The notes under the pieces: model-generated | What the model saw: only the letters and a program-made list of their open reading frames with translations | Databases searched by the model: none | What the model was told of the DNA's origin: nothing | From: an uncultured Chthonomonadaceae bacterium | GTDB taxonomy: Bacteria > Armatimonadota > Chthonomonadetes > Chthonomonadales > Chthonomonadaceae | Assembly (NCBI GenBank): GCA_963835065.1 | Contig: CAWIEK010000016.1 | Coordinates: 32,001 to 96,000, forward strand | Reading direction: 5' to 3' | Length of the DNA stretch: 64,000 nucleotides | Translations under genes and position numbers: made by a program | Shown: positions 10,158 to 40,576 of the stretch, one piece after another | Numbering within the stretch: position 1 is the first letter of the stretch | Layout of the letters: every line of letters starts with the position of its first letter

Positions 10158-10239
10158 GTCCTCTGGCCGAATGGGAGTAGATCACGGACGCGCGGAACCG
10201 GCGCAAGCAAAGGATGAAAAGACAAGGATGAAGGATGAA

Positions 10240-10392
10240 AAAGGAAATATGTAGAGGCAGCGTCGAAATCTTGGCAATACAGCGCTTCCAGCCCGATGTC
10301 TCGTTGTGTCAAGTTGTAGAAGAGAGGCGTCGTGACCTCAACAGCGTCAGGGCGAACGGGAGGGGTGGAGCATGGGCCTGTACCTCCTTTAC
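10240..10392 (-). other. conserved stand-alone element, copy 2 (UGA-containing small ORF or ncRNA)
   Basis: 9 differences in 127 nt from the copy at 35254-35380; AAAGGAGGT then ATG at 10373; in-frame TGA at 10347-10349 and 10338-10340. Confidence 0.75.
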
Positions 10393-10574
10393 TGTATAGT
10401 GGACGCATGTATTCTATAGACAGGGCATGTGGGGCAAAAGGTTCGCTTTTTTCGCGTTGTTTGGCTCTTTTTTCTGTCTTTTGTCTCTGTTTGCGGGATC
10501 GTTGCAAATCGGAGGAGGCTAATACATTCATTCGCCTAAATTATTGGGGTAGATCAGAGTTGACCATCGAAGAG

Positions 10575-32378: not shown

Positions 32379-32390
32379 TTGCTTTATAAC

Positions 32391-32535
32391 TCTTCACCAC
32401 CAAGCCTCCAAGAACACCAAGAAGAACGAAAAGAAGAACGTTATAAAATTGCAGAAGAAATTGAAAGAGTACCGCGTTCTGATCCTTTCGTATTGCCTGC
32501 ATTACTTGGTGTTCTTGGCGTCTTGGTGGTGAAGA
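32391..32535. repeat. palindromic element with 9-bp CACCAAGAA-type arms
   Basis: tcttcaccaccaagcctccaagaacaccaag ... cttggtgttcttggcgtcttggtggtgaaga between convergent genes. Confidence 0.8.
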
Positions 32536-32536
32536 G

Positions 32537-33295
32537 CTACGTTGTTTTCTGCAGGATGCGCGCGAGAAATTCTCTTGTGCGGGCGTGGGTGGGAGTTACC
32601 AGCACCTGTTCGGGCGTTCCCTGCTCTACAATGACGCCTCCGTCTAAAAATAGAACGCGGTGCGCCACTTCGCGGCAAAAGCCCATTTCGTGCGTGGCGA
32701 CCAGCATCGTGCGGCCCTGTTTCGCCAGATCGCGCATGACCGTCAGCACTTCGCCCACCAGTTCGGGGTCAAGCGCGGATGTGGGTTCATCGAAAAGCAG
32801 GACGGCGGGCTTAAGCGCAAGGGCGCGGGCAATGGCGACGCGCTGCTGCTGCCCGCCCGACAGTTCGCCCGGAAAATTACGCGCTTTGGCCTGCAAATGT
32901 ACCTGTTCCAGCAGTTCCAGCGCTTCCTTTTCTGCAATGGCCGGGGATTGGTTCAGCACCTTGCACGGCGCGAGCATCACGTTTTGCAGCGCGGTCAGGT
33001 GCGGAAACAGGTTGAAGCGCTGAAACACCATGCCGATCTCGCGCCGTACCTGGTTGAGATTAGCGGGCGAAATGGCCGCGTTCCGCAATTTGACGCTCCC
33101 GGATGTGGGCGTTTCCAGCCAGTTGATGCAGCGCAGCAGGGTTGACTTGCCGCTTCCCGACGCCCCGATCAGCCCGACCACTTCCCCTTCCAGCACGTCC
33201 AGCGAAATGCCTTTCAGCACCTCCAGCCGCCCAAAACTCTTCCGCAAGTCCGTTGTTGTCAGTATAGGTTGTCCATCCTGTTCACGCAAATTCAC
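32537..33295 (-). CDS. polar amino acid ABC transporter ATP-binding protein
   Basis: [35 protein letters not shown]. Confidence 0.95.
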
Positions 33296-35035: not shown

Positions 35036-35233
35036 ATACTTCCGATGGTGGATCAATCCTGCCCCCTCTTGAAAATGCCTCTTTTGTCCTGAAATAAAAA
35101 GTGCTGTATCACGCGAAAAAATGAACCCTTTGCTCCCCACAGCCGTCTAAACAGTAGAACAACGTCTGCTATACAAACAAGAAGGCTGAACGTTGCTAGT
35201 TCCTATCAACTATCAACTATCAACTATCAACTG

Positions 35234-35390
35234 AGAAGGGAGGTGCAAAGCCTATGTTTCACCCCTCCCGCTCGCCCTGACGCTGCTGAGGCCACGACGC
35301 CTCTCTCCTACAACTTGACACAACGAGACATCGGGCTGGAAGCGCTGCATTGCCAAGATTTCGACGATGACTCTACATATCCTTTTTTCT
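35234..35390 (+). other. conserved stand-alone element, copy 1 (UGA-containing small ORF or ncRNA)
   Basis: GAAGGGAGGT then ATG at 35254; in-frame TGA at 35278, 35287 and 35368; homologous to 10240-10392. Confidence 0.75.
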
Positions 35391-35428
35391 ACAGACCTTC
35401 ATCCTTCATCCTTTGCTTGCCCACGCGC

Positions 35429-37382
35429 TTACGGTTTTACGGTTCCGAAGAGGATGCGGGAGGGATAAGCGGCGGTGTGGTAGAGCCGGTTGGTCGCCGC
35501 GCGGTAATCGGATTCGCGGGCGGCGTAGATGTCGCAAAACGTCTGCGGGTTGCGGTCTACAAGCGGGAACCAACTGCTTTGCACCTGCACCATCAGGCGG
35601 TGTCCCTTTCTGAACGTATGGCACACGTCCGGCAGATTAAATTTCAGTTTCGTGGGTTTGTCCGGCGTGAACGGCTCCGGCTTTTCAAAACTGTTGCGGA
35701 ACTTGCCGCGCATCACGTCGGCGCGTACCAGCATTTGGTAGCCTCCCATCTTCACGGTTCCCGTTGCGGACTCGGTATCGGGCGCGTCGTCGGGGTACAC
35801 GTCTATGATTTTCACAACCCAATCGGAATCCGTGCCGGATGTGGACACAAACAGGTCGGCGGTAATCGGCCCGGCAACGGTCATGTCCTGCGCCATCGGC
35901 TCGGTTTTGTAGGTGAGAACATCGGCGCGTTCGGCGGCAAAACGCTGGTCGGCAATCATGTAATTGTTGTTGCGGCGGATGCTTTGCGACGCGGTAGCGA
36001 CATACGGCACGGGTTTGGCCGGGTCGCTGACATAGCTGTCGGCGCTTTCCGGCGTTACTGTCGCGGACGCGCCCGTTTGCAGCGCTGATGGTGGATTTGA
36101 TTGTGGATTTGATTGCAGATTTGCCGGCTTGTGAGGGTGAAGACGCAAGACGATGCTCCGCGCCGAAGTAAAGCGATTGCGCTTGCAGGGCGCGGGGCGG
36201 CCAGGCGTCGAAGGACAGCCATTGATTGGAACCGGTAGCGAACACGCGCGCTTTGGATTCCTTCCAGTCACCCTCATCTTTGAGATAATGGTTGAAGAAC
36301 GGAAACTCGATCTCGTTGCGGTAGGTGGCGGCGGTTGCGCTGCCAAATGGAATATCGCCGAACGAACTGCGATCCCCTCCCGCCCAGCCGCCGTGCGGCC
36401 AGGGACCGACAACAAGGTAGTTTGGAGTAGTGGGACTCGCTTTTTCAATGGTCTTGAAGATGTGCAGCGGGCCGTAAAAGTCTTCGGCGTCGAACCAGCC
36501 GCCCACAAGGAGCATGGCGGGCCGAACGTCTTTGAAATGCGGCAGCAGGTTCCGCGCTTTCCAATAAGCGTCATACGTGCCGTGCTGCATCATCTCGTTC
36601 CAAAACGGAACCTGATTGTGAAAATAGCGGGCGTTGGCGTTGGAAAGCGGGCCGAGGTCGAGATAGAATTGGTACGAATCGTTGGAGTCGTAGCGCAGGC
36701 CGGTGGGCAATTGGACGCGGGAAGGGCCGGTACGGGGCCAGTCGAAGCGCGAGTTGAAGTCCCACGCGAAGTTATCCAGCAGATAGAACGCGCCGTTGTG
36801 GTGTTCATCGTCGCCCAAAAACCAGTCGGCGATGGGAGCCTGCGGCGAAACGGCTTTCAGGGCGGGATGGGCATTGATGGCTCCGGCTGCGGCATAAAAG
36901 CCCGGATAGGAGATGCCCCACATCCCCACCCGCCCGTTGTTGTGCGGGACGTTGCGAACCAGCCAGTCTATCGTGTCGTAGGTATCGGTGCTTTCGTCAA
37001 TGTCCGCTTTGCCGTGTTTGCCCGTAAGCTGCGGGCGCACATTGACATAATCGCCTTCCGACATATACCTGCCGCGCACGTCCTGATACGCGACAATATA
37101 GCCGTTTTCCGCGAAATGGGACGAGGGGCCGAGCGAGTTAGGAAACGCATCAGGGCCGTAGGGAACGCTGTAGGGGGTGCGCTCCAGCAGCATGGGATGG
37201 TTCTGCGACGTATCTTTAGGCGCGAAAATGACGGTATACAGCTTCGTGCCGTCCCGCATGGCGATGGCAACATCGGTTTTCGTATAATTAGCGCGAACGT
37301 CAAACCGCCCCTGCGCCCCGGCCAGACATGGCAGCAGGCAAAGCAGCAAAATACAAATCAACTTCCAATGGCGCTTGTTCAA
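35429..37382 (-). CDS. CocE/NonD-family hydrolase, frameshifted near 36.1 kb
   Basis: MRDGTKL, RTPYS, QDVRGRYMSEG, WGISYPG, VGPWPHG; C-terminal QSSWFPLVDRNPQ in the second ORF. Confidence 0.92.
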
Positions 37383-40459: not shown

Positions 40460-40576
40460 ATTAGGCATTAGGCATGTAGGCATTAGGCATCAGAAAAGAC
40501 ACAAAGCCAGGAAGTTCGTTCTTGCTTGTCCTTGCATCTAATGCCTAATGCCTACATGCCTAATGCCTACATGCCT
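40460..40576. repeat. heptamer inverted-repeat element (AGGCATT / AATGCCT)
   Basis: ttaggcattaggcatgtaggcattaggcat ... taatgcctaatgcctacatgcctaatgcct. Confidence 0.85.

Follow-up and report, generated by a model that had tools for sequence, protein, structure and literature searches.

A candidate multicopy RNA gene with a predicted proline-stop micro-ORF in one genus of Chthonomonadaceae

The window analysed here is a 64,000-nucleotide (nt) stretch of DNA from an uncultured Chthonomonadaceae bacterium (GenBank assembly GCA_963835065.1, contig CAWIEK010000016.1, positions 32,001 to 96,000 of the forward strand), and coordinates refer to it unless a contig is named. From position 35,234, it carries a short element with a Shine-Dalgarno (SD) sequence, a very short open reading frame (ORF) and signs of RNA structure. 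An earlier note described this element as the first copy of a duplicated gene-like element with three in-frame UGA codons. Is it a gene and, if so, of what kind? Comparison of its copies argues that it is a real RNA gene, multicopy, under selection and not classified before, whose translated micro-ORF ends in a proline codon and a stop (hereafter the Pro-stop gene). The letters and coordinates reported for copy 1 are correct, as is its translation, MFHPSRSP*RC*GHDASLLQLDTTRHRAGSAALPRFRR*LYI. A second, 85% identical copy is present at 10203-10390 on the minus strand, but the pair is not a duplication: copy 1 is one of 162 full-length copies in the 8.0 Mb genome of the window (G000), with no fragments found by BLAST and nhmmer. 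With its promoter, copy 2 spans 10238..10444 on the minus strand (promoter 10444-10416, SD 10387-10382, ORF MLHPSRSP from 10373, hairpin P1 10339-10324, loop 10285-10269). All but one of the G000 copies (161 of 162) are distinct, with a mean identity of 85%.

A covariance model built from 79 copies was used for genome searches. The genus has two further genomes, G002 with 47 matching sites (one truncated) and G001 with 13; in 39 other genomes of the family, with 85 candidates scored per genome, the element was not found. In 399 other genomes of the phylum, the loop pattern gave 0-7 scattered matches each, mostly with one mismatch, and no multicopy signal. Viral contigs gave zero matches to this pattern, and metagenome contigs gave four in which the likeness is confined to the loop. 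A scan of genome contigs gave at least 32 matches, and those among the matches listed are all Chthonomonadaceae MAG records. Judged by these searches, the element appears to be restricted to one genus. Cross-genome counts below draw on 220 copies: 162/162 from G000, 46/47 from G002 (one being truncated) and 12/13 from G001. In four public runs (three taken by guess to be DNA, one unlabelled), the core exceeds most flanking bins in summed contig depth by a factor of tens to hundreds, a ratio that is not a copy number; this high depth fits a real multicopy element. The earlier note had not recognised the family, in agreement with our comparison of the window with Rfam 15, which gave no hits at the gathering score and one hit with an E value of 4.3 outside the core. 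No description of the gene family was found in the literature searched, in which subscription papers were thinly covered.

Copy 1 has an amino-acid ABC transporter gene, oriented away from it, on one side and, on the other, the 3' end of a CocE/NonD hydrolase gene that converges on it. A role as a minus-strand leader of the ABC transporter was considered and is ruled out by gene context and by the strand of pairing. The copies are dispersed among unrelated neighbour genes, and only 59/161 copies have a co-oriented gene downstream, so the Pro-stop gene is not a leader. Other features of the window and of these genomes were recorded in passing. The hydrolase is split into two overlapping ORFs (35429-37382, minus strand), and contigs of runs X2 and X3 have one base fewer at 36087, so that the frame break in the window is probably due to a base inserted in assembly and not to a true frameshift. 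At 32387-32539 and 40462-40576, further short-repeat families form long inverted repeats, one of them made of heptamer arrays. Approximately 16 tRNA genes, some of them atypical, are clustered at G000:C49:430516-447719 (possibly an island), and a tRNA with a TTA anticodon is called by ARAGORN elsewhere. Matches to 23S rRNA extend over approximately 3,220 nt in G000 and G001 (L182, L183) versus approximately 2,980 nt in G002 (L181), suggesting an intervening sequence of approximately 240 nt.

Upstream of the region covered by the earlier note, which omitted it, is a predicted ECF-sigma-type promoter (35123..35150, plus strand) consisting of GAACC (35123-35127), a 17-nt spacer and GTCTA (35145-35149). 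The strict pattern (GAA(C/A)C, a spacer of 16-18 nt, GTCTA) is found in 126/162 copies, and matches to the promoter profile lie beside 157/162; one strong orphan, a promoter module without a core, is located elsewhere (G000:C54:109050). We take the conserved GAACC/GTCTA module to be an ECF-sigma promoter on the basis of the consensus of such promoters; no sigma-70 site was found. A-rich columns are conserved immediately upstream in the 126 parsed copies (35092..35122, plus strand in copy 1), a stretch that may be UP-element-like. Downstream, a second GTCTAC-like motif (here GTCTGCTAT, 35164..35172, plus strand) follows the -10 box by 12-15 nt, and the 5' leader of a subset of copies contains an optional insert, an array of CTATCAA heptamers (35203..35232, plus strand), which belongs to a separate genome-wide repeat with 139 clusters. 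Promoter-like motifs are also observed upstream of ordinary genes (G000 C1:219464, C5:7890, C32:15667 and C37:93822), which hints at a host ECF regulon. A G001 subfamily (L022, L026, L030, L036 and L038) has longer ORFs of approximately 15 codons, alternative starts and no ECF-type motif; its different conserved upstream block contains CACAACATATAGT, which resembles an NrdR box.

The SD (GGAGGT, 35239..35244, plus strand) falls in conserved columns and is complementary to the CACCTCC that the 16S rRNA of this genome carries at its 3' end. It is followed after 9 nt, as the earlier note had it, by the ATG at 35254, which opens the micro-ORF MFHPSRSP (35254..35280, plus strand; stop TGA at 35278-35280). 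The micro-ORF is typically 8-9 codons long, with 15-16 codons from alternative starts in some G001 copies. Its last codon encodes Pro in 217/219 copies (CCC 166, CCT 29, CCG 16, CCA 6) and position -3 is Arg in 200/219, using all four CGN codons (otherwise Leu in 12, His in 6 and Gly in 1), although the copies are related and these codon counts are not independent events. Position -2 is Ser in approximately 147/219 and Pro in approximately 59/219. The stop is TGA in 182 copies, TAA in 36 and TAG in 1, and the distance from ATG to stop is a multiple of three in 203/208 ATG-started copies although the length varies. For comparison, 8.3% of G000 genes end in Pro and 0.6% in R-x-P, and the codons of the micro-ORF end are common ones in the genome. 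Synonymous freedom with fixed residues is a mark of translation, and the end of the micro-ORF is under protein-level selection. Past the stop, the reading frame is not kept (the stop-to-loop distance spans all three mod-3 classes). The spacer that follows (35281..35287, plus strand) is variable in sequence and fixed in length, at 7 nt in 210/219 copies. It leads to hairpin P1 (35288..35303, plus strand; 5 base pairs [bp] and a 6-nt loop), which was correctly identified previously as GAGGC-CACGAC-GCCTC and which covaries: among 79 sequences, 99.2% of cells are paired, with AU 72/UA 5 at one pair and UG 65/CG 13 at another.

By analogy with known systems, these features suggest an RNA that is induced under stress and on which ribosomes stall at R-x-P-stop, similar to the CreT toxins, CRISPR-free and with a new 3' domain. 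This is the reading that we prefer, tentatively and with confidence a little under even. Each copy would be transcribed from an ECF-type stress promoter; the RNA would load a ribosome at the SD, and 8-9 codons would be translated before the ribosome stalled at termination on Arg-x-Pro-stop, holding peptidyl-tRNA-Pro. P1 would then sit just beyond the mRNA entry site of the paused ribosome, a position derived from ribosome footprint geometry. Ribosome cover of the ORF may help the 3' domain (described below) to fold, presenting its invariant loop to a putative partner, and many copies together could form a dosage brake that slows translation. The gene likely travelled as the cargo of miniature elements (MITEs) mobilised by two unrelated IS transposases; the shells of these elements would have decayed afterwards while selection and gene conversion preserved the gene. 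The model is drawn from the selected peptide end and stop and the fixed 7-nt spacer, seen against the low genomic background of Pro and R-x-P ends. Also counted in its favour are that promoter and core are kept together in 157/162 copies, with no core fragments, and that no prfC above the cut-off was found in 5/5 genomes. Pro-stop is reported to stall termination, and C-terminal Pro to be more depleted in clades without RF3 (10.1101/751305); another source reports that over-expression of TnaC traps tRNA-Pro, inhibiting growth (PMC11890864). Counted against the model is the SD itself, for which the mean predicted pairing is 0.92; the earlier proposal that the SD can pair holds to this extent, but it has several alternative partners rather than one. 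The stalling analogy is also imperfect, since most copies have Ser at position -2 and the spacing of the CreT hairpin is free.

Beyond P1, an unpaired linker (35304..35324, plus strand), 20-28 nt long across copies and with indels that break frame, connects to a 3' domain that was missed in the earlier note (35325..35373, plus strand). This domain comprises stems P2 (6 bp, 35325-35330 with 35368-35373) and P3 (7 bp, 35335-35341 with 35359-35365) and a 17-nt apical loop (35342-35358), which, as comparison of the copies indicates, carries the near-invariant AGCGCTGYATTGCCA together with the last base of P3. A conserved CATA and U-rich tract follow (35374..35388, plus strand) that do not constitute a canonical intrinsic terminator. 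The two TTCATCC heptamers after these (35398..35411, plus strand) had been noted as a heptamer arm in both copies; they belong to a separate genome-wide family of short repeats and lie outside the gene.

Over P1, P2 and P3 together, 91.4% of cells are paired in 79 sequences and 21 cells have changed on both sides versus 0/500 shuffles, a count in which related sequences can score above shuffles through kinship. Controls with slid stems are 45-49% paired; P2 and P3 were drawn by hand from divergent copies and then counted, so this comparison favours the stems partly by construction. Pair 5 of P3 forms a GU/AU/GC series that is paired in 217/217 copies on the plus strand and in 21 on the minus strand, pair 1 of P2 forms a GC/GU series, and pair 5 of P2 shows CG/AT swaps. 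Two positions are against the model: pair 4 of P2 is paired in only 84/217 copies and broken in 133, and pair 2 of P3 is C-A in 211/217; both are a better fit to the minus strand. A single copy folds no better than its shuffles (z of -0.92 for the minus strand and +0.78 for the plus strand), and the evidence for structure is thus solely that of comparison between copies. No usable pairs came from mutual information when G000 was taken alone, and RNAalifold recovered only P1 and a 2-bp stem in the loop. Of the pairings proposed earlier, the GTGCA/TGCAT pair, considered compensatory, shows no covariation (the TACA variant is combined eight times with loop C and nine times with loop T), and GCCC/GGGC holds in most G000 copies and is mostly broken in the congeners. 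The broader proposal of a folded RNA of approximately 150 nt with a translated ORF is supported by covariation on the plus strand and by codon-level selection; the alternative of a decayed repeat is refuted.

AGCGCTGYATTGCCA is intact in 162/162 G000 copies and has a single-base exception, excluded from the counts, in one G002 copy; as congener copies were chosen by the loop motif, only the G000 count is independent evidence of its invariance. The apical loop is, to judge from the aligned copies, the most conserved part of the gene. It is without a role in the stalling analogy, and weight must therefore be given to a second reading, in which the stall is a sensor or shield: with a ribosome on the micro-ORF, the RNA would be stabilised or refolded, and the loop would bind and titrate a protein in the manner of a multicopy sponge sRNA. 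The fixed length of the spacer is in keeping with such a device, as is the effect of masking the ORF, which increases predicted P2 pairing from 0.25-0.50 to 0.34-0.65 and raises P2/P3 pairing in all three genomes, but this gain in folding is modest. Against a sponge, no significant complement to the loop was found in 16S, 23S, tmRNA, tRNAs, the loop itself or other genomic sequence. We consider this reading unlikely, although it survives better than any of those below. Two resemblances of the element were also examined. In register, the loop agrees at 15/18 positions with tRNA-Gly(GCC) over its D-stem and anticodon arm, a score reached by 3/300 shuffles; this likeness is tied with that of a tRNA-Ala and is a lead only. 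Ancestry from tmRNA was suggested by a colinear look-alike in some copies (1 and 5/60 shuffles, with four others not significant) and is not supported, as the element profile does not match the genome's tmRNA.

How the gene may have been spread is suggested by its flanks: in 65/162 G000 copies, ends of a MITE shell of ISAs1 or ISAzo13 type are still present. The ISAs1-type shell has 22-bp inverted ends that start with CAGGG, mostly lie approximately 420-480 bp apart and are flanked by 10-bp target site duplications (TSDs). Both ends are present in 12/162 copies and one end in 17/162, versus 0.2-0.4% by chance, and they match an ISAs1 element of G002 at 21/22 bases; an ISAs1 transposase was found in G002 and in neither G000 nor G001. 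PMC11946415 lists CAGGG ends and a 10-bp repeat among the traits of the ISAs1 family. The second shell is more decayed and touches 37/162 copies, with 24-bp ends similar to those of two G000 ISAzo13 elements (allowing up to 7 mismatches per 24 bases, both ends in 5, the right only in 29 and the left only in 3 of 162; chance 1-2%) and TTA/TAA flanks at some end pairs. Neither shell is detectable in 97/162 copies, including both copies in the window. Divergence of the 3' core is lowest in these 97 (0.033), and the right ends that were detected diverge from their motif by 0.11 (ISAs1) and 0.22 (ISAzo13) versus 0.03-0.07 for the 3' core: the cargo outlasts its vehicles, the ends decaying while the core does not. 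This is the reverse of a typical MITE, in which the interior decays and the ends are conserved. At G000:C2:238939 and C11:2170, the left TSD of one ISAs1-shell copy matches the right flank of the other, which suggests recombination between copies. HUH/Y1 transposases occur in the genome without a link to the copies.

Carriage in two unrelated shells, confinement to one genus with variable copy number (13/47/162) and a CreT-like layout would also suit a selfish addiction cargo, a toxic RNA that, by making its loss or imbalance costly to the host, helps the MITE to persist instead of taking part in a stress response. We regard this as decidedly unlikely: neither an antitoxin nor any conserved promoter in antisense was seen, loss of one copy should be compensated by the others, which are interchangeable, and the 97 copies without a detectable shell are intact.

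The distribution of the copies along the genome raises another possibility. Neighbouring copies less than 10 kb apart number 4 versus 27.4 expected, and less than 20 kb apart 19 versus 49 expected (0/2000 simulations reach either value). The deficit persists when simulations are conditioned on gap type, and six control repeat patterns show no such deficit. Copies are also enriched at contig ends (8 versus 1.1 within 1 kb), and no contig is shorter than 10.7 kb, so that assembly may have lost close pairs; when nine hidden pairs are added, the result for 10-20 kb holds and that for 5 kb does not. The copies thus appear to be spaced more evenly than chance, and loss of short contigs could explain more of this; the even spacing is not accounted for by dosage. 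A role at the DNA level, in which evenly spaced copies mark chromosome domains through protein binding or local transcription, would account for the deficit of close neighbours. It is nevertheless very unlikely in our estimation, because G-U-type substitutions and codon selection indicate RNA and translation, the possible assembly loss weakens the spacing itself, and congener copies are too few for spacing to be assessed.

At approximately 10/51 congener loci examined, a G000 copy is present at the matching site. Among nine shared sites, the orthologue ranks only 16th-142nd of 162 in eight cases and 2nd in one. The signature letters after the loop differ by genome, and copies at shared sites carry the letters of their species. 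The copies are mosaic in their modules, with Spearman values of 0.06-0.36 between the promoter, leader, ORF and core segments. Together, these orthologue ranks, signature letters and mosaic modules point to homogenisation of the copies by gene conversion, that is, to concerted evolution. RNA-templated copying from the start site was rejected, as some close pairs also share the promoter spacer and upstream DNA. Comparison with empty sites in G002 gave no clean junction, and flanking synteny with G002 often breaks at copies. Given the mosaic modules, the species-specific letters at shared sites, and the inverted ends and TSDs in a subset of copies, one could propose a neutral MITE remnant made uniform by conversion alone. 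This reading is largely refuted and has very little probability left: conversion cannot fix Pro, Arg, the stop and the paired bases while third codon positions and the spacer vary in the same tract, and the ends decay faster than the cargo.

A dispersed retron ncRNA, or a retro-copied element, that uses a type XIII retron reverse transcriptase (RT) is less probable still. An RT_XIII (E 8e-163) with a SWIM partner is present in 3/3 genomes of the genus, and msDNA-like repeats are reported from a myxobacterium; however, no copy adjoins the RT, four other genomes of the family have the RT without the element, the unit includes an upstream promoter and DNA-transposon ends, and no msr/msd layout fits. 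The RT genes with their SWIM/BRCT partner (L180:1288-3541 on G000:C50, L178 and L179) are preceded by a gap with only species-specific heptamer palindromes and no obvious msr-msd. A 394-aa reverse transcriptase is located beside a cas1-like gene with an internal TAG at L177 (G000:C49:680160-683777) and L206. Least credible of all is selenocysteine or read-through recoding, as the earlier note had suggested together with selenium sensing, or a cis leader of a downstream gene: the UGA-C context followed by a hairpin and the tRNA-Sec gene of the genome make recoding possible in principle, but stops swap among TGA, TAA and TAG (TAA or TAG in 37/219 copies), no frame is kept beyond them and no consistent co-oriented gene is present, so that this reading is, on the pattern across copies, refuted at the level of the family. 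The three in-frame UGAs are real in copy 1, but only the first position is a conserved stop in the family: the second is TGA in 61/159 copies read and the third in 65/162, all three are TGA in 31/162, and the third position of copy 2 is TGC.

Returning to the ribosome-trap model, its most extended form would make the Pro-stop gene a new RNA class: a CRISPR-independent, stress-induced ribosome trap combining a Pro-stop stall with a structured domain that has its own partner, picked up by two unrelated transposons, whose approximately 160 evenly spaced and mutually corrected copies would be kept by the host as dosage-tuned dormancy or as chromosome-distributed control of translation. This claim is somewhat unlikely as a whole. 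If it is true, a mobile cargo would have been turned into host-wide translation control, with 162 copies kept intact after the decay of the transposon ends; the mini-ORF RNA toxins and arrest peptides known so far each belong to a single locus, either CRISPR arrays or a downstream operon. The 219 natural variants would map the residues and base pairs that matter for Pro-stop stalling, and with a whole gene of less than 300 bases, stalling, toxicity and the loop partner are open to direct testing.

The closest comparison is with CreT of P. aeruginosa, a 'proline-codon toxin' that is reported to have an SD, a mini-ORF ending in Pro-Pro-stop and a hairpin needed for bacteriostatic translation arrest; activity is lost when either Pro is replaced, and the hairpin only protects the RNA, its spacing being free (10.64898/2026.06.02.729485). 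CreT RNA toxins are also haloarchaeal (PMC8501985). The Pro-stop gene resembles them as a stand-alone small RNA with an SD, a mini-ORF that ends in Pro codon(s) and a stop, and a GC-rich hairpin. CreT needs Pro-Pro or rare codons, whereas the Pro-stop gene mostly has R-S-P-stop in common codons; CreT is located in or beside cas loci, whereas the Pro-stop gene is dispersed among unrelated genes, and no cas1 was found in G001 (97% complete) or G002 (80% complete). The fixed spacer, the added 3' domain, the 13-162 dispersed copies and the predicted ECF-type promoter further distinguish it from CreT.

Among arrest peptides, the RAPP peptides ApdA and ApdP hold R-x-P in the P site, and arrest depends on an A-site Pro (PMC10951233). 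A C-terminal R-x-P in what would be the P-site register is common to RAPP/RxPP peptides and the Pro-stop gene, but the former need an A-site Pro or Gly and a regulated downstream gene, whereas the latter has a stop in 219/219 copies and no consistent downstream gene. With the termination-arrest peptides TnaC and PepNL (PMC11890864), it likely shares a pause at the stop codon; it differs from arrest peptides in its 8-16 residues, its many copies and its lack of a regulated downstream gene. Repeats with gene-like signals are also known, and are likened here by description only: PMC3184786 describes a promoter, RBS and ATG within Neisseria REP2 (often upstream of open reading frames) and Borrelia IR-A, and compensatory RNA structure in the approximately 155-bp bcr1 repeat of Bacillus cereus. 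Unlike REP2, the Pro-stop gene ends in its own selected stop. Its likeness to ISAs1- and ISAzo13-derived MITEs is confined to a subset of copies, in the ends and, for ISAs1, the TSDs. On these comparisons, the Pro-stop gene would work like CreT or an arrest peptide and yet falls outside both groups, and it is a MITE in part of its copies.
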